From: Solirubrobacterales bacterium
GTDB lineage: Bacteria > Actinomycetota > Thermoleophilia > Solirubrobacterales > JBBDJG01
NCBI GenBank assembly: GCA_035650255.1
Contig: DASRIA010000045.1
Location: 42,461-106,460, forward strand
Length of the DNA stretch: 64,000 nt
Direction: 5' to 3'
A model generated the notes under the pieces. That model saw only the letters and a list, made by a program, of their open reading frames with translations, was not told the origin of the DNA and made no database searches. The stretch's first letter is position 1, and each line of letters begins with the position of its first letter. Below are positions 3,901-11,876 of the stretch, piece by piece. The position numbers and the translations under genes are program-made.

Positions 3901-4371
3901 ATGTCAAGGGACAACACCAAAAAACGCGGCAACTACAACTCCGGCGAGGACTACGTCCTCGAGTACGGAGAGCTGCGCTTCACCTTCAACGAGGAGGACT
4001 TCCGCCAGCGGGTGGAGCAGGCCGCCGTGAAGCTGAGCTTCGTCAAGCCGGGGCTGGCCACCGAGGAGCTGGACGACCTCGTGAACCTGGCCGTGAACGG
4101 TGAGATCCGCGAGGCGTCCTCCCCGCTCGGCGAGCACGTGAACGAACGCTGGTACGAGCTCGTCGGCCCCGCCGACCGCTCGCTCGTCCACTGGCTGCGC
4201 CGGCTGGTGTTCCGCGGCGCCTGGCTGGACCAGCGCGTCAAGGAGGGCGAGCTCGACATCCACTTCCATGAGGAGACGCACAGCTTCGGCTACGTGCAGC
4301 CGGACCGGGACTCGGAGCTGATCGAGCTGTCACCGGAACCCTCGTGGAAACCAGTGGCTTATCCCGGCTAG
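3901..4371 (+). CDS. Hypothetical protein
   Basis: Start placed at an ATG internal to the 280-aa track ORF (MSRDNTKKRGNYNSGEDYVLEYGELRFTF...). Normal amino-acid composition and coding-like GC3. No family recognised. Confidence 0.45.
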   Translation: MSRDNTKKRGNYNSGEDYVLEYGELRFTFNEEDFRQRVEQAAVKLSFVKPGLATEELDDLVNLAVNGEIREASSPLGEHVNERWYELVGPADRSLVHWLRRLVFRGAWLDQRVKEGELDIHFHEETHSFGYVQPDRDSELIELSPEPSWKPVAYPG

Positions 4372-4395
4372 GTAACTCCGCGTCCCACGGGCCGC

Positions 4396-4459
4396 CGGCC
4401 GGCATGCCCGCTCGGAGACGGAAAACCGTTCGGGAGTCTCCGATCGGGCATACCGGCCG
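4396..4459. repeat. Long imperfect palindrome (copy 1 of a conserved hairpin element)
   Basis: 24 paired positions with 2 mismatches. Inner stem TCGGAGAC/GTCTCCGA around the loop GGAAAACCGTTCGGGA. Same core as 15190-15248. Lies between convergent genes. Confidence 0.6.
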
Positions 4460-4468
4460 TCGGCCCGG

Positions 4469-5737
4469 CTAGCTCTGCTCCCTAGCCCGTTCCGCGAGGA
4501 ATTCCCACGCCTCTTCCGGATTGAGTGAGCGGGCCACGCCGCGCATGTTCTCGAGTTCGCGGCGGCGCTCGGGGTCGAGCAGCGCGTCCTCGCCCAGGGT
4601 GCGGGAGCGCTCCGCGTCGATAGCGGGGTGCTTGCCGCGGGCCGCCAGGCCCGCGTGCAGCCGCAGCACCATGTTCGCGCTGTCCTCGAGGGCGTCGTGG
4701 ACGAGCCCGTCCAGCGGGGAGCCGGTTTCCACCCGCGCGGTGGCGATCAAGGTCAGCGAGCCCTGCCCGGGGCCTGCGTCCCGCGCCGCGGAGAACCAGC
4801 GCTTGGTGGCTTCGACCGCCTGCGCGGGAGTGCCGAGGGCGAGGCCGTAGGCGCGCGCCAGCCGGCTCAGCGAGTCGAGCAGCAGCACCGCGTCCTCCCC
4901 GCGCGCCGCAGCCTGCTTGGAGTCATCGAGTGCGCGCTCCGCGAGCGCAACCTGATCGCGCGGAGAGCTGCTCGCGTCGGCGGCGGCCACGTCCACGTGC
5001 TCGTCCCACTCCGGCACCTCTTCGGGCCGCACGTCGACGAGCACCGCCCGCACACGCGCGCCCTCACGCGCCAGGCCGCGGCCGAACTCCTGCAGGAGCG
5101 CGGTCGCACCGGCGCCGGCCGGGCCCGCGATCATCGCGCGCTGGCCGCGCCCCACGGGCGCAACGATCTGCACCATGCGCGTGGCGAGCGCATCGCCCAG
5201 CTCGAGCTCCCGGCTGGGGCGCAGCACCGGCAGGTCGTCGAACGACGACCGCGACACGGGAGCGGGCCGCTCGGCGGGACGCTGGGTGGGGCGCTCGACT
5301 GAACGTTCGACGGGACGCTCGACCGGGCGTTCGAGGTCTTCGAGGGTGACGTCGTCCTCCTCGGGCCGCTCGCGCCGGCGGGGCCGCCGCTCCGCCGGGC
5401 GGGCCCGCTGCGGGCGGGAGGGTCGTGCCGGAGGCGGCGCGGGCGTCGGAACCGGCGTGGGCACGGCCACCTCTCCCCCGCTCAGCGCGGCCACCAGCTG
5501 CTCGCGTCTCAGCAGGCGATAGCGCGGGAGCCGGGCCTCGGCGGCGAACCGGTGCAGGTCCGCGAGCGGCCTGCCCTCCAGCTCCTCCGGCGCATGTGCG
5601 GGCGCGGGCGGAGCGCCCACCGCCTCCCGGGCGGCTACGTCCTCGCCGGCGGCCTGCGCCTCGCTGCCCGACGGACCCTCCGGAGCAGCCGGAGGACCCT
5701 CGCTATGCCGACGTCGGCTGCTTCGAAACCAGCTCAC
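4469..5737 (-). CDS. Rho-like protein: Rho N-terminal helix domain plus RecA-type C-terminal domain with degenerate ATPase motifs and no OB-fold RNA-binding domain
   Basis: LADLHRFAAEARLPRYRLLRREQLVAAL (Rho_N-like). IVAPVGRGQRAMIAGPAGAGATALL aligns to Rho IGRGQRGLIVAPPKAGKT. VLVDVRPEEVPEW aligns to LIDERPEEVTEM. AVLLLDSLSRLARAYG aligns to VIILLDSITRLARAYN. GSLTLIATARVETGS and HPAIDAERSRT are also Rho-like. Confidence 0.7.
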   Translation of the reverse strand: MSWFRSSRRRHSEGPPAAPEGPSGSEAQAAGEDVAAREAVGAPPAPAHAPEELEGRPLADLHRFAAEARLPRYRLLRREQLVAALSGGEVAVPTPVPTPAPPPARPSRPQRARPAERRPRRRERPEEDDVTLEDLERPVERPVERSVERPTQRPAERPAPVSRSSFDDLPVLRPSRELELGDALATRMVQIVAPVGRGQRAMIAGPAGAGATALLQEFGRGLAREGARVRAVLVDVRPEEVPEWDEHVDVAAADASSSPRDQVALAERALDDSKQAAARGEDAVLLLDSLSRLARAYGLALGTPAQAVEATKRWFSAARDAGPGQGSLTLIATARVETGSPLDGLVHDALEDSANMVLRLHAGLAARGKHPAIDAERSRTLGEDALLDPERRRELENMRGVARSLNPEEAWEFLAERAREQS

Positions 5738-6395
5738 GTAGCCACTCGACGAACTCCGGCCGGGTTTCCCAGTCCGCCTTGAAACGCGTCCGCCCCTGCT
5801 CGGTCAGCGGGTGATCGAGCATCTGCCGGAACACCTTTGCCGGGACGGTGGCGACCTCGCACCCCAGCCTGGCCGCTGTGACGACGTGCTCGGGGTGGCG
5901 GATCGACGCGGCCAGAACCTCGGTGGTCGTCCCGCCCGGACGCAGCGCAGACACGATCTCCTGCACCACAGAGGTGGAATCGATGGAGATGTCGTCCAGC
6001 CGGCCCATGAAGCAGGACGCGTACAGCGCTCCCGCCTGTGCGGTCAGGAGCGCCTGGTTGGACGAGAAGACCAGCGTCATGTTCACGCGGATGCCCTCAT
6101 CGGTCAGCGCGCGCGTGGCAGCCAGGCCCTCGCTCCCGAAGGGGACCTTCACCACGACGTGCTCGTGCAATGTGGCGAGGGCGCGGCCTTCCTCGATCAT
6201 GCTCGCGGCGTCGTCGGAGACGACCTCGGCGCTCACTGGGCCGCCCACGAGGTCGCAGATCCGGCGCACGATGTCGCCCGGCTCCCCCTTCTCCTTTGCG
6301 AGCAGGGAGGGATTGGTCGTCGCGCCGGAGAGGATGCCCCAGCCGGCGATCTCCTCCACCTCTGCAACGGACCCTGTGTCTATGAAGAACCTCAT
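5703..6395 (-). CDS. tal: Transaldolase / fructose-6-phosphate aldolase (short TalC/Fsa type)
   Basis: MRFFIDTGSVAEVEE, SGATTNPSL, VVVKVPFGSEGL, IRVNMTLVFS, FMGRLDDI. ATGA overlap with the upstream gene at 6392-6395. Confidence 0.9.
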   Translation of the reverse strand: MRFFIDTGSVAEVEEIAGWGILSGATTNPSLLAKEKGEPGDIVRRICDLVGGPVSAEVVSDDAASMIEEGRALATLHEHVVVKVPFGSEGLAATRALTDEGIRVNMTLVFSSNQALLTAQAGALYASCFMGRLDDISIDSTSVVQEIVSALRPGGTTTEVLAASIRHPEHVVTAARLGCEVATVPAKVFRQMLDHPLTEQGRTRFKADWETRPEFVEWLRELVSKQPTSA

Positions 6396-7384
6396 CGCGC
6401 CATTCCCTTCTCCGAGCCATCACCCGAGGCACCACCGCCCCGTTCGGGCACTCCTGAGAGATTAGCGCCGGAGGCGGCACCCACCGCGTCGAGCACGACC
6501 TCGAGGACCCGGCGCCACACGTTCTCGAGGCCCGATCCGGAGGCGTCGATCACCGGCACGCCGGCGGCCTCGGCGCGCCCGATCAGGTAGTCCTGCACTG
6601 CCCGGATGCGCTCGAGCGCCTCCAGGTAGCGCTGGGGCTCGCGCAGCGTCTGCACGCCGCGCGTGTGGAAGTGCTCCCGGTGCTCGTCCTCGTCGCGCAC
6701 CGCGAGCATCACCCGCACGGTGGTCGCACGCGCGCACAGGCCGGCGTCCGGGACGTCGGGCAGCAGGTGCACGCCCTCGACGACCATCGGCGTGCGGTCC
6801 GAGATCGCCCGCTCGACCACCGCGTCGAGCCCGGGAGCGATGTCGTGCGCCTGGTGCACGTAGCCGGCGACGGTGCCCGACGGATCGCCCGCCGGCCCGG
6901 CGAGAGCCCGCGAGACGTCGAAGGACGAGTGGTGCACGGACGGCAGGAACTCGCGGGAGAAGAAAGCCCGCACGACCTGCCGCACCTGGTCGGTGGCGAT
7001 CACGTGCGGGATCCCGAGCCGCCCCGCCAGCTGGGTCGCGACGGTCGACTTCCCGACGCCCGTCACGCCGCCGATCAGGACGAGCAGCGGCCGCTCCAGG
7101 TTGCGCACGTTCCACCACTGGCGGAACCGGGTCAGCACCGGCTCTCCCTCGCCCGCGGCAAGCACGTCCTCCGCCACCGCGCGCAGCTCGTCCACGCTGA
7201 TCTCCCCGGACCGGTGGGTCAGGAGGTGCTCCTCGATCTGCTGGGCGAGCGCGAACGAGCGCTCGGAAGGCAGGCCGGTCGCCATCAGGGACTGAGCCAT
7301 CAGGCCCTTCGAGTACGGCAGTCCGTAGTCGCTGCGCACGACCACGGTCGGCGGCGCACCGCCCCGGCGCTGCGCCGGGCTCAC
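6392..7384 (-). CDS. 2-phosphoglycerate kinase-like (COG2074 family)
   Basis: LPYSKGLMAQSLMATGL..., P-loop LIGGVTGVGKSTVATQLAGRLGI, HVIATDQVRQVVR. Start set at GTG 7384, which forms a GTGA overlap with the upstream stop. The rest of the 521-aa track ORF is the alternate frame of the upstream gene. Confidence 0.75.
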   Translation of the reverse strand: MSPAQRRGGAPPTVVVRSDYGLPYSKGLMAQSLMATGLPSERSFALAQQIEEHLLTHRSGEISVDELRAVAEDVLAAGEGEPVLTRFRQWWNVRNLERPLLVLIGGVTGVGKSTVATQLAGRLGIPHVIATDQVRQVVRAFFSREFLPSVHHSSFDVSRALAGPAGDPSGTVAGYVHQAHDIAPGLDAVVERAISDRTPMVVEGVHLLPDVPDAGLCARATTVRVMLAVRDEDEHREHFHTRGVQTLREPQRYLEALERIRAVQDYLIGRAEAAGVPVIDASGSGLENVWRRVLEVVLDAVGAASGANLSGVPERGGGASGDGSEKGMAR

Positions 7385-8748
7385 GAGCCCGCCCTCGTGA
7401 CACGGCCACCGGCCTTCTGCCGCGCGGCCTCCACGAGCTGGAGCAGGGCGCCGTCGAGCGGCGGCCCGCTCGCCTCGGCGACCGGGCGGTTGCGCAGGAA
7501 CACGACGCGCACTCCCGCGCCGGCGGCGGCTTCGGCGACGACGTCGACGGCGGCGGCTTTCAGCTCGGTCAGGAACACATCGCACCCATCGCGCAGCGCG
7601 GCCTCGACATCTCGCGCGAGCTCCTCGCGCCGCGCCAGGTTGGTCGAGAGGTGGCGCGGCTTCACGCCCTCCCGGGCCAATCCCTCGACCAGGCTCGTCT
7701 CCGTGCCTGGCCGTGCCGTCACGAAGCATGCCACGCGGGCGCCTTGCTCCAGCGGCTCCGCCGGGCGCGGCCGGAGGGCGCAGCTCACGATCCGCTCGCG
7801 GGGGATCCAGCGGTCGAGGCCACCGTCGAGCTGCCCGCGCAGGGACGGCGCGAGCTCGGCCGCTCCCAGCAGCACGAGCAGGTCGGCGCGCAGCAGCCGC
7901 AGGGGCCCGAGGTGGGAGAGCGCCTGCGCACCGGCGTCCGCGGCCGGCGTCACGCACACCGTCGCGTGCGCGGCCACCGGTGGCAGAGCGGCGCCGCTTC
8001 CCTCCAGCACGATCACGTCCGGTTCTTCCTCGAGCGCCGCGCGCAGCCCCGCGTGGACGTTGGACTCGAAGGTCTCACCCGCCGGGCCCTCCCCGCAGCG
8101 GCGGCAGCCGACGGTGGTCACGCCGGCGAGCACCGCGTCCTCCAGGTAGTCGGACGCGGCATGTCCGCCGGCGCGCGCGATCTCCAGCAGCTCGGCGAGG
8201 CCCGGGCGTGCGGCGGCCCGGATCACGACCGGCTCGGGCGGGCCGCCCCGCCCCATCGAGACCACCACGGTCTCCATGCCGGATTCGCGCAGCAGCGCAG
8301 CGAGGTGAGTGCCGAGCGCGGTCTTGCCGGTTCGCTTGCCGGTCCCGATCACCGCGACAACGGGAACGCCGTCCGTCTCCGGCGCAGGGGCGGCCGGCGG
8401 GGTCAGCAGCATGCCGGGCGCGCGGTACTCCAGCCCTTCGTGCAGTGCGACCGCCGCCAGCTCCATCCGGGCGGCTGGATCGACGACGGGCTCTCCCGAG
8501 AGGTCGACGACCGCCTCCGCTGCGCATGTTCGGGCAAGGGAGCCGAGCGCTGCGCGCACGTCCTCCCCCGGCATCGTCACGTCCCGCCCGTAGTGGGCGG
8601 CCGGATCCGCGAGCACCGCCGGGGGGACCTTCTCCTCGCCGCCGGCGAACAGCACGCCCGCGAGCTCGTGCTCCTCCTGCAGCTTGTCGAGCGCCGCGCG
8701 CGCGACGCCGGGATGGTGCTCGCCGTCTACGAGCGCGATGACCCGCAA
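7381..8748 (-). CDS. cpgS: Cyclic 2,3-diphosphoglycerate synthetase-like (COG2403 family)
   Basis: 455 aa. N-terminus MRVIALVDGEHHPGV. P-loop VVAVIGTGKRTGKTALGTHLAALL. The size and adjacency to a 2-phosphoglycerate kinase-like gene fit the cDPG pathway pair. Confidence 0.7.
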   Translation of the reverse strand: MRVIALVDGEHHPGVARAALDKLQEEHELAGVLFAGGEEKVPPAVLADPAAHYGRDVTMPGEDVRAALGSLARTCAAEAVVDLSGEPVVDPAARMELAAVALHEGLEYRAPGMLLTPPAAPAPETDGVPVVAVIGTGKRTGKTALGTHLAALLRESGMETVVVSMGRGGPPEPVVIRAAARPGLAELLEIARAGGHAASDYLEDAVLAGVTTVGCRRCGEGPAGETFESNVHAGLRAALEEEPDVIVLEGSGAALPPVAAHATVCVTPAADAGAQALSHLGPLRLLRADLLVLLGAAELAPSLRGQLDGGLDRWIPRERIVSCALRPRPAEPLEQGARVACFVTARPGTETSLVEGLAREGVKPRHLSTNLARREELARDVEAALRDGCDVFLTELKAAAVDVVAEAAAGAGVRVVFLRNRPVAEASGPPLDGALLQLVEAARQKAGGRVTRAGS

Positions 8749-8758
8749 CGCGACGCCC

Positions 8759-9544
8759 TCACCCGCCGACTCCCTCCCGGTCGAGGCCGGCCTTCTCGTA
8801 CTCGTGGGGCATCTGGCGGGACCACTCGATGATCGGCTCCTGATCGTCGAACGGATACCGGCGCACGATTCGCACCGAGCTGGGATCGATCTCGATCACG
8901 TTGTAACAGGGGCGGGTGTGACCGCGGAGCCGCAGGGTGGAGACCGTGCCCGTCGTGACCACGAACAGGTCCTCGAGGCGCCATGCGTACGGCACGTGCT
9001 TGTGGCCGGCGAGCACGAGGTCCACCCGCGATCGCAGCAGCACCTCGAGCAGGTCGCCGGCGTCGTAGACGATGTTGCGCTCGCGCCCGGTGCCGGGGAC
9101 GGGCAACAGGTGGTGGTGCAGGACGAAGATGCGCAGGTCGGCCGGGTGGGAGAAGCTCTGCTCGATGTGCTCGTAGCGGTTGCGGCCGATCTGGCCGTGG
9201 TTGAGGTCGGGCTCGGACGAGTCCTCGGCCACGAACGAGACACCGTCGACGTGCAGCGAGGAATGGCGCGGCCCGAACATCTCCTCGAAATGCACGTAGC
9301 CCACGTTGCGCGAGTCGTGGTTCCCGGGGACGACGATCAGCTGCTCGCACTCGATCCGGTCCACGAATTCGCGCGCGATCTGGTACTCGCCGCGGAACCC
9401 GTCCGAGGTGAGGTCGCCGCTGATCACGGTGACGCCCGGCTGGAGCTCGTTGATCTCCTCGATCGCGCGCTCCAGCAGGTCGGCCTGGAAGTGCGGCGAG
9501 CCGCAGTGCAGGTCGGAGATGTGTGCGATGCGAAGAGAGCTCAT
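8759..9544 (-). CDS. Calcineurin-like metallophosphoesterase
   Basis: IAHISDLHCG, VISGDLTSDG, VVPGNHD, VLHHHL, LAGHKHVP. Start chosen at ATG 9544, one nt after the folP-like stop. Confidence 0.8.
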   Translation of the reverse strand: MSSLRIAHISDLHCGSPHFQADLLERAIEEINELQPGVTVISGDLTSDGFRGEYQIAREFVDRIECEQLIVVPGNHDSRNVGYVHFEEMFGPRHSSLHVDGVSFVAEDSSEPDLNHGQIGRNRYEHIEQSFSHPADLRIFVLHHHLLPVPGTGRERNIVYDAGDLLEVLLRSRVDLVLAGHKHVPYAWRLEDLFVVTTGTVSTLRLRGHTRPCYNVIEIDPSSVRIVRRYPFDDQEPIIEWSRQMPHEYEKAGLDREGVGG

Positions 9545-9545
9545 C

Positions 9546-10475
9546 TCAAGGTGTTCCTGATTCACGACTGACTTCCTCTACTTGTTCCCGCCGCAGGCGG
9601 TCGTCAAGCAGCAGGTCGGCCGGCACGGACACATCGCCCCGCAGCGCCGCGCGAACCGCCAGGAAGTCGCGTGTCGCGGCGACGTCGTGCACGCGCAGGA
9701 AGTCGGCGCCGTGGTCGAGCCCGTGGGCGATCGCGGCAAGCGTTCCGCCCAGACGCTCGCGCGGCGCCCTCTGCGTCAGCGCGCCGACGAAGTCCTTGCG
9801 CGACACGGCCAGCAGCACCGGGTATCCCAGCGCGCTGATCTCGTCCAGGCGGCCGAGCAGCTCGATCGTCTGTGCCGGGTCCTTGCCCAGGTCGGGGCCG
9901 GGGCAGACCACCAGCCGGTCCTCCGCGACGCCGGCTTCACGCGCGAGCTCGAGCCGCTCACAGAGGAAGCTCTTCACGTCGTCCACGACGTCGTCGTAAC
10001 GAGGGCGATGGAGCTTTTCCTTCGGGCGCGCGCGCGTATGGGTCACCACGAGCGCGGCGCCGGAGTCGGCGCACACCCCGGCCACGCCGAGGTCGGTCAG
10101 GCCGCTCGGGTCGTTGACCATCACGGCTCCCGCCGCCACGGCGGCGCGTGCGACCGGAGCCTTGTACGTGTCGACCGACAAGGCTGCTCCCGAGCCGGCC
10201 AGGCGCTCCACCAGGGGGGCGACGCGCTCGATCTCCTCGGCCGGGTCCACCGCCGGCTTGTTCGTCACCCCGGACTCCCCGCCCACGTCCAGCAGATCGG
10301 CCCCCTGGGCCAGCAGCTCGCGCCCCCGGGCCACCCGGGCCCCGAGATCCGGGTGGTCGCCGCCGTCGGAGAACGAGTCGGGAGTCGCGTTCAGGATGCC
10401 GACCACGTGCGCAGCGCCGTCGAGGCCGAACTGGCGCTCCCGTGCGACCAGGGTGTGGCCCGCTGCTCTAGTCAT
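9546..10475 (-). CDS. folP: Dihydropteroate synthase family protein (atypical loop 2)
   Basis: GILNATPDSFSDGG, LLDVGGES, VDTYKAPVA, VMVNDPSG, VSRKDF, LRVHDV. The canonical GGESTRPG motif reads GGESGVTNKP here. Confidence 0.8.
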   Translation of the reverse strand: MTRAAGHTLVARERQFGLDGAAHVVGILNATPDSFSDGGDHPDLGARVARGRELLAQGADLLDVGGESGVTNKPAVDPAEEIERVAPLVERLAGSGAALSVDTYKAPVARAAVAAGAVMVNDPSGLTDLGVAGVCADSGAALVVTHTRARPKEKLHRPRYDDVVDDVKSFLCERLELAREAGVAEDRLVVCPGPDLGKDPAQTIELLGRLDEISALGYPVLLAVSRKDFVGALTQRAPRERLGGTLAAIAHGLDHGADFLRVHDVAATRDFLAVRAALRGDVSVPADLLLDDRLRREQVEEVSRESGTP

Positions 10476-10589
10476 CGCATCCGAGGTCGCCTAGCATAGG
10501 ACCGCGGGGCCCGTCCCGGCTCAGAAGCGATCTGACCTTGTGTCGCAAGGTCGGACCGGCGATAGTATTCTGGCTATCAGCGGGGGACG

Positions 10590-11876
10590 GTGGTGACCTG
10601 CCGCAAAGGCCATCCATCAGCAGCGGGGGGCATGGGAGTTCGTAGCGTGAGACGAAGGGGTTTCACCTTGACCGGCGCAAGGCGCCTGGTCGTTTCTGCG
10701 TGCCTGGCGATCGTCGGCGCAGCGCTGCTGCCGGCTGCCGCCGGCGCCCTCCCGCCGCCGTACGACAACTTCCAGTTCAACACCGACTTCGTGCAGCAGA
10801 CCGGGCCCGAGGTGATGGTCTACGACTGGACCACGCAGAAGTGCGAGAACAACGACATCCCCGACCAGTCGGCGCGGGCGTTCCGGGACAACACCGGGAA
10901 GATCAACCTGATCGCGGGCCACTTCACGAACTACCGCTGGCTCGCGGACTCGCTTGACGGTCCCTTCACACACCCGTGCACCGTGATCATGTCGTCGACC
11001 AACAGCCCGGACGTGGCGACGTTCAACTCGCGCGAGTGGATCGCCTCCCCGTGGACTGCCGACGGCGCGAACGTGTACGCGCTGGTGCACAACGAGTACC
11101 AGGGCTCGCAGTTCCTCTCCGGCTGCGGCGAGGGGTACCAGTGCTGGTGGAACTCCATCACCACCGCGGTCTCCACGAGCGGCGGGGCCGGCTTCACCAA
11201 CACGGGCGCACCCGCGCACATGATCGCGACGATCCCGTACCAGTTCACGAAGGACGGCCCGCACGGCTACTTCACGCCGAGCCAGATCGTGCGCACCGGC
11301 GACGGCTGGTTCTACGCCATCTTCCGCGCCAACCCGAAGGGCGCGCAGCAGTTCGGCGACTGCCTGATGCGCACGCGCGACATCAGCACCCCGTCCTCTT
11401 GGCGGGCGTGGAACGGCACCGACTTCTCCACCCGCTTCGCCAACCCGTACATCGAGTCGATCAACCCCGCCGACCACGTCTGCGCGCCGGTCGACTTCGC
11501 GAGCATCGGCCTGATCAGCGAGAGCCTCACCTACAACACCTACCTGAAGAAGTGGATGCTGGTCGGCAACTCCGTGGGCGAGCCGGCTGAAGGCAAGCCG
11601 CCGGGCGTCTACTACGCGCTCTCCGACGACCTGCTCAACTGGACGCACTCGGCACTGTTGATGGAGGCCGAGATCACCTGGGTCAGGGACTGCGTGCTGC
11701 CGGACCCGATCAAGGAGGTCTCGATCCTCGACCCGAGCAGCACGTCGCGCAACTTCACGACCGTGGGACAGACCGCGCAGCTGTTCTACACCTGGTACCA
11801 CATGAGCGGCTGCAACGGCACGCTCGACCGCGACATAGTCCGCGTCCCGATCCAGTTCGTAGACCCGACCCCGTGA
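10590..11876 (+). CDS. Secreted hypothetical protein
   Basis: 428-aa ORF with a signal peptide (RRLVVSACLAIVGAALLPAAAGA; alternative start at 10632). Trp/Tyr-rich globular sequence. The stop overlaps the start of the next gene. No family confidently recognised. Confidence 0.55.
   Translation: MVTCRKGHPSAAGGMGVRSVRRRGFTLTGARRLVVSACLAIVGAALLPAAAGALPPPYDNFQFNTDFVQQTGPEVMVYDWTTQKCENNDIPDQSARAFRDNTGKINLIAGHFTNYRWLADSLDGPFTHPCTVIMSSTNSPDVATFNSREWIASPWTADGANVYALVHNEYQGSQFLSGCGEGYQCWWNSITTAVSTSGGAGFTNTGAPAHMIATIPYQFTKDGPHGYFTPSQIVRTGDGWFYAIFRANPKGAQQFGDCLMRTRDISTPSSWRAWNGTDFSTRFANPYIESINPADHVCAPVDFASIGLISESLTYNTYLKKWMLVGNSVGEPAEGKPPGVYYALSDDLLNWTHSALLMEAEITWVRDCVLPDPIKEVSILDPSSTSRNFTTVGQTAQLFYTWYHMSGCNGTLDRDIVRVPIQFVDPTP

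Follow-up and report, generated by a model that had tools for sequence, protein, structure and literature searches.

The 64,000-nucleotide stretch of Solirubrobacterales DNA analysed here (the window) carries on its minus strand a gene for a homologue of the synthetase of cyclic 2,3-diphosphoglycerate (cDPG), CpgS, followed directly by a gene for a homologue of 2-phosphoglycerate kinase (2PGK) and preceded by a metallophosphoesterase gene. Judging from the sequences, we put the probability at about 0.65 that this locus encodes the known two-step route to cDPG, in which 2PGK would act first and CpgS second. The pair is widespread in Actinomycetota and already annotated in databases, and so is nothing peculiar to this bacterium. 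What is added here is the metallophosphoesterase at 8759-9565 as part of the cpgS-2PGK module. The main features, with lengths in amino acids (aa), are as follows.

7381-8748, minus strand: cpgS, for a 455-aa homologue of cyclic 2,3-diphosphoglycerate synthetase, with a TTG start
6392-7384, minus strand: gene for a 330-aa 2PGK homologue, starting at GTG; the protein has an ATP-cone-like N-terminal region and a P-loop kinase domain
7381-7384, minus strand: GTGA stop/start overlap from cpgS to 2PGK, read from the sequence
8759-9565, minus strand: calcineurin-type metallophosphoesterase, 268 aa (Pfam Metallophos, E 1.5e-18)

The cpgS and 2PGK genes

Both cpgS and 2PGK are real genes, and they are translationally coupled. 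The plus strand reads TCAC at 7381-7384, that is, GTGA in the coding direction, so that the TGA ending cpgS shares bases with the GTG at which 2PGK begins. The initial annotation of this DNA had described this overlap and a CpgS of about 455 aa, and both descriptions hold. An identical GTGA junction occurs in the closest relatives (loci L002 and L007), and a GAGGG Shine-Dalgarno-like run lies about 8-13 nucleotides (nt) 5' of both starts. The start of CpgS, (M)RVIALVDGEHHP, agrees with the orthologue consensus MRVIALIDGEHHP. A longer 2PGK start was rejected: the frame is open upstream to 7957, but this extension lies inside cpgS, and the orthologue matches start at residues 1-13. CpgS carries the motif GTGKRTGKT, and 2PGK carries GLPYSKGL, the P-loop GGVTGVGKST (7040-7069) and IATDQVRQV. 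The two family assignments first made from such motifs were right, and the motifs named at that time are the conserved ones. The metallophosphoesterase gene stops 10 nt ahead of cpgS.

Homology and ligand residues of CpgS

Window CpgS matched the solved cDPG synthetase of Methanothermus fervidus (PDB 8ork/8oru) with an E value of 4.8e-63 over residues 2-442 of 455, and the two proteins are 33% identical over 444 aligned columns. They belong to the same length class (455 versus 460 aa) and align over their full length, including the CpgS_N region and the P-loop core with its GTGKRxGKT loop. A second deposited cDPG synthetase, PDB 9sxb, was matched with E 3.7e-56. This protein has 436 aa, is rich in Lys and Ile, and shares 49% identity with the enzyme of M. 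fervidus. In the copies of Pfam and NCBIfam that were searched, no model was reached by window CpgS; a database protein identical to it is tagged PF27272 (CpgS_N).

In the M. fervidus enzyme, 2,3-diphosphoglycerate (2,3-DPG) is bound by E45 and K46 of the partner subunit together with K145 and R146, phosphate and Mg2+ by K149, T150 and D208, and ATP by T353, E404 and K406 (De Rose et al. 2023, PMC10690619). All ten residues are kept in window CpgS, as E39, K40, K138, R139, K142, T143, D200, T344, E395 and K397. When 119 actinobacterial and 8 archaeal CpgS sequences were aligned, nine of the ten positions (E45, K46, K145, R146, K149, T150, D208, E404 and K406) proved invariant, and 112 of the 119 bacterial proteins have Thr at the place of T353. 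The two enzymes also differ. Their identity is only 33%, and E305, which contacts adenosine in M. fervidus, is replaced by Ala297 in the window protein, at a position that is variable in bacteria. Moreover, the M. fervidus enzyme comes from a hyperthermophile, whereas the host of window CpgS is a soil actinobacterium.

Family assignment of 2PGK

The 2PGK homologue matched the NCBIfam models NF003259 (E 5e-74, 249 bits, model positions 8-290 of 306) and NF008994 (E 1.6e-76, 258 bits). These matches, like that of CpgS to the solved enzyme, are much stronger than chance would give. It was also compared with the 304-aa M. fervidus 2PGK, an enzyme reportedly described by Lehmacher and Hensel in 1994. 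The comparison gave 32% identity over 266 residues (E 2e-54), and thus the homology to the M. fervidus enzymes, which the initial annotation had proposed to check, is borne out for both proteins. The M. fervidus sequence was identified only through a genome encoding a cDPG synthetase with 100% identity to P0123; this database protein has, in turn, a 100% match to the PDB-derived M. fervidus query. The likeness covers the N-terminal region and the kinase domain, and the three motifs P[YF]SKG, [ST]TDxxR[QE]V (TDxxR[QE]V for the window protein) and EGxH are common to 113 bacterial and 22 archaeal (Methanobacteria) 2PGKs, the window and M. fervidus proteins included.

Gene order and co-inheritance

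Gene order was examined first in a set of 86 loci, drawn from relatives and from species genomes, and then in 32 further loci, one per family, spanning 36-72% GC. In the first set, 2PGK adjoins cpgS downstream in 85 of the 86 loci, the exception ending at a contig edge, and the phosphoesterase lies upstream of cpgS within the locus in 78. The order was preserved across families: 2PGK follows cpgS in 30/32 loci and the phosphoesterase precedes it in 28/32, while a gene of the fructose-6-phosphate aldolase/transaldolase family (fsa) and a rho homologue lie downstream in 23/32 and 29/32, respectively. A gene of the dihydropteroate synthase family stands upstream of the phosphoesterase only in loci of Solirubrobacterales and Thermoleophilaceae, not in those of other classes.

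The three genes are also inherited together. Among 61 genomes of the window's order, cpgS, 2PGK and the orthologous phosphoesterase are all found in the same 24 and none of them in the other 37. Phosphoesterase orthologues were accepted here at E <= 1e-99, except for one copy pieced together in a fragmented genome. The phosphoesterase is the best conserved of the three proteins, with identities across the loci of about 48-95%, compared with 35-79% for CpgS and 33-86% for 2PGK.

Rubrobacter xylanophilus has a variant of this arrangement. Its cpgS orthologue, 43% identical to that of the window and, as far as could be found, annotated by similarity only, has the phosphoesterase directly upstream and rho downstream, but its 2PGK is unlinked, about 870 kb away. 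Between cpgS and rho, in place of 2PGK and fsa, this locus contains a gene for a 333-aa protein (L107:3850-4851) with the motif GIGGAPEGV; judged by eye from this motif, it looks like a class II fructose-1,6-bisphosphatase (GlpX).

The linked metallophosphoesterase

The window phosphoesterase shows the metal-binding motifs DxH, GD, GNHD, HHH and GHxH. Given its co-inheritance, we count it as the module's third member. It is also a candidate phosphohydrolase of cDPG or 2,3-DPG, a role to which we give slightly less than even odds. The less probable course is that the protein is a mere syntenic neighbour outside cDPG metabolism, for example a cyclic-nucleotide or sugar-phosphate phosphodiesterase. 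The conserved block includes the unrelated housekeeping genes fsa and rho, so that synteny alone is weak evidence, and the closest solved relative of the protein is the cyclic-nucleotide phosphodiesterase Rv0805 (E 1.6e-9). Paralogues that are 46-49% identical have a transaldolase, an ROK kinase or a CpsB-like gene beside them, and either the genome or the site in question lacks cpgS. One of them belongs to the window's own genome, a 3.3-Mb assembly in 104 contigs. It lies at G000:C62:6924-7658 (= L138:3920-4732, minus strand), is 47-49% identical, and is directly downstream of genes for a 364-aa transaldolase and a pyridine-nucleotide-disulphide oxidoreductase. Furthermore, a 49%-identical archaeal homologue adjoins a NAC gene, not cpgS. 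Against these points stands the perfect match between the presence or absence of the phosphoesterase and that of cpgS and 2PGK in the 61 relatives. In Rubrobacter, the phosphoesterase is still beside cpgS though 2PGK has been relocated.

The archaeal side provides a further point against the mere-neighbour explanation. In M. fervidus and Methanothermobacter, the gene directly upstream of 2PGK, in the same orientation, codes for a metallophosphoesterase of 212-223 aa. This independent linkage is seen in 42 of 51 Methanobacteria loci, some of them with a 2PGK that is only 50% identical. The genes of the first two are given below.

L144:2332-2970: metallophosphoesterase upstream of 2PGK in the M. 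fervidus genome
L143:3244-3915: metallophosphoesterase upstream of 2PGK in Methanothermobacter

These proteins are not orthologues of the window phosphoesterase, to which their similarity is at the motif level only (E 0.009). Different phosphoesterase lineages are thus tied to 2PGK in two domains of life, which is the best argument for a phosphohydrolase in the pathway. Methanothermobacter has two homologues of the window-type phosphoesterase elsewhere in its genome (49% and 42% identical, by tblastn), and the phosphoesterase tree gave no firm grouping of them with either the cpgS-linked clade or the paralogues. In contrast to the window cpgS, which forms an operon with 2PGK and the phosphoesterase, the Methanothermobacter cpgS has neither gene as a neighbour. 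Both families are nonetheless nearly universal in the sampled genomes of its phylum, with cpgS in 95/101 and 2PGK in 99/101, so that presence and absence in archaea carry no information on the phosphoesterase.

A cDPG hydrolase activity was described in 1992-1994, and to our knowledge, which includes no specific search for one, no gene has been assigned to it. According to a review, the activity in M. thermautotrophicus is membrane-bound and is inhibited by K+ and phosphate.

Distribution and evolution

An even sample of Actinomycetota gave a strong cpgS match in 231 of its 401 genomes, or 151 of its 249 genera, and the few weak matches were truncated genes at contig ends. A protein search returned more than 6,000 CpgS homologues, many of them named cyclic 2,3-diphosphoglycerate synthetase by JGI metagenome calls. 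When 1.84 billion cluster representatives were searched without a profile, 171 clusters passed a threshold of E <= 1e-30 and 514 one of E <= 1e-10, and two peptide patterns matched at least 580 species genomes. The closest named loci among the matches listed are Solirubrobacterales metagenome genomes from soil surveys. Cultured carriers include R. xylanophilus DSM 9941, whose protein (ABG04618.1/Q1AVG0) already bears the name cyclic 2,3-diphosphoglycerate synthetase, and Parvivirga hydrogeniphila, whose protein is annotated only as DUF1611. The pair and the linked phosphoesterase gene are common and old in Actinomycetota. The initial annotation had implied that the pair was rare in bacteria, and this did not survive the wide distribution, the synteny over 32 families and the names already in place in the databases.

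The same annotation had implied an import from archaea and had suggested a phylogeny as the check. A recent archaeal-to-bacterial transfer that made this organism unusual would fit the archaeal origin of the characterised enzymes, and the Methanobacteria counterparts of all three proteins are about 33-49% identical. We regard it as extremely improbable. In a FastTree phylogeny of 101 CpgS sequences (unrooted), 8 archaeal and 93 actinobacterial proteins fall on opposite sides of a single branch with support 95. The tree groups Solirubrobacterales, Thermoleophilaceae and Gaiellaceae as in the taxonomy, and window CpgS is nested with its own genus inside the Solirubrobacterales clade. A gene carried by more than half of the sampled genera, with the order upstream of rho kept across families of very different GC content, also speaks against such a transfer, as does the lack of linkage between cpgS and 2PGK in archaea (Methanothermobacter). 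This scenario was rejected for its disagreement with the distribution, the synteny and the tree. The tree and the synteny point instead to vertical descent since early in Actinomycetota.

Outside Actinomycetota, the one match labelled Phycisphaeraceae was set aside. Its genes are ordered as in actinobacteria (folP, phosphoesterase, cpgS, 2PGK, rho), and the contig has probably been misbinned. The contigs so labelled (L089/L090, protein P0110) and one labelled Nocardioidaceae (L030) show a Thermoleophilia-type gene order and look misbinned; the CpgS of L030 falls with Thermoleophilaceae in the tree.

Proposed pathway

From the homology, the ligand conservation and the linkage described above, we infer the following scheme. 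The metallophosphoesterase, CpgS and 2PGK would form a three-gene module, transcribed with its neighbours as one chain of overlapping genes. 2PGK would use ATP to convert 2-phosphoglycerate into 2,3-DPG, and CpgS would then consume another ATP in forming the intramolecular phosphoanhydride of cDPG, as in M. fervidus. The phosphoesterase would most likely open or dephosphorylate the product, either from cDPG to 2,3-DPG or from 2,3-DPG to phosphoglycerate, and return it to the glycolytic pool. The three genes might thus amount to a cycle of synthesis and turnover off lower glycolysis and gluconeogenesis. The nearest relatives, among the matches listed, are soil metagenome genomes, so thermoprotection is an unlikely purpose. 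In soil hosts, a buffer of carbon, phosphate or energy, or a stress solute, seems more likely than a thermoprotectant.

Several observations weigh against this scheme. The scores of window 2PGK are under the curated equivalog cut-offs of both models (249 versus 343 bits for NF003259, 258 versus 603 bits for NF008994), and by the NCBI rule the protein is to be classed from its sequence as a family member, not an assured equivalog. The Walker A motif differs as well: the Lys present in all 113 bacterial 2PGKs, including that of the window, is Thr (GVGTSS) in all 22 Methanobacteria proteins, including that of M. fervidus. The 2PGK family is also wider than cpgS, occurring in Thermus, Deinococcus, M. 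jannaschii, H. volcanii and S. acidocaldarius too, and the phosphoesterase paralogues mentioned above lie beside sugar-metabolism genes without cpgS. Our literature search found no report of cDPG or of the activity of these enzymes in any bacterium, in line with the earlier remark that bacterial cDPG synthesis lacked a biochemical demonstration. The available excerpts of the Rubrobacter solute data list no cDPG, although R. xylanophilus has cpgS, the phosphoesterase and an unlinked 2PGK; these data came from targeted methods not designed to detect cDPG. Finally, the superfamily to which CpgS belongs includes ArcE, an enzyme of unrelated chemistry (PMC11032458).

These points would suit an alternative in which the window proteins are diverged paralogues acting on other substrates. 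Their product might be some other phosphorylated or cyclic compound, or they might work in the opposite direction and gain ATP, like ArcE. ArcE, the arginine synthetase TK2200 of Thermococcus kodakarensis, belongs with cDPG synthetase to one P-loop superfamily, of which it is a distant member. Formerly a putative GTPase and widespread in bacteria, it interconverts arginine and citrulline, and it illustrates that a complete change of chemistry is possible within the superfamily (PMC11032458). The 2PGK family likewise occurs in organisms not known for cDPG, the five taxa named above, and includes a mevalonate-3-phosphate 5-kinase model. The sub-threshold score of window 2PGK and the Rubrobacter solute excerpts lie on the same side. 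Nevertheless, all 2,3-DPG and Mg ligands that were named for the solved synthetase are invariant in bacterial CpgS, and the two families that are strictly linked and co-occurring are exactly those of the known pathway. The ArcE authors called the similarity of ArcE to cDPG synthetase low (PMC11032458), in contrast to the E value of 4.8e-63 for window CpgS. Window CpgS is probably distinct from the ArcE clade, as its high similarity to cDPG synthetase, the 2,3-DPG ligands that it keeps and its linkage to 2PGK indirectly suggest. No ArcE-like paralogue was matched by window CpgS in the 401 Actinomycetota genomes, where the weak matches were gene fragments at contig ends. We therefore consider diverged paralogues improbable, and prefer the two-step route to cDPG.

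A broader proposal is that cDPG metabolism is an ancestral, widespread trait of Actinomycetota that operates through the three-gene operon. The window-type metallophosphoesterase would then be the missing cDPG hydrolase, and the non-orthologous metallophosphoesterase upstream of 2PGK would fill this role in Methanobacteria. The breadth of the distribution agrees with it, as cpgS is present in over half of the sampled Actinomycetota genomes, many of them soil or low-GC small genomes. In its entirety, however, we consider this proposal speculative and rather unlikely.

Significance

The compound has been stated to be exclusive to hyperthermophilic methanogens (De Rose et al. 2023, PMC10690619), and ancestral reconstructions have taken its synthetase as a trait indicating thermophily. 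The literature therefore treats both as markers of thermophilic archaea, whereas a conserved and co-inherited operon spans most lineages of a major bacterial phylum. Either cDPG is far more widely spread and serves a different purpose, for instance as a store of phosphate, carbon or energy or as a protectant against desiccation, or the bacterial enzymes make something else. For the cDPG hydrolase activity, the genes of the linked phosphoesterases are specific candidates. In addition, the enzymes are of applied interest for the production of cDPG as an extremolyte.

Neighbouring genes

The genes on either side of the module, given here for context, are listed below.

9546-10475, minus strand: dihydropteroate synthase-family gene, head of the overlapping chain (TIGR01496, E 9.5e-77)
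5703-6395, minus strand: fructose-6-phosphate aldolase/transaldolase-family gene, fsa (TIGR00875, E 1.9e-75, above cut-off)
4469-5737, minus strand: Rho-family ATPase gene, end of the block (NCBIfam Rho models, E 1e-47 to 1e-48, below cut-offs)

The start of the metallophosphoesterase gene overlaps the dihydropteroate synthase-family gene by 20 nt, and the stop of 2PGK overlaps the ATG of the fsa-family gene in the sequence ATGA at 6392-6395. A consensus scan of 4200-10900 for promoters and terminators, including internal terminators, gave no signal beyond chance. In the Rho-family gene at 4469-5737, Pfam matches the ATPase domain only, without Rho_N or an RNA-binding domain. Its product has a long N-terminus rich in Pro, Arg and Glu, and relatives of the window have a rho homologue in the same place.

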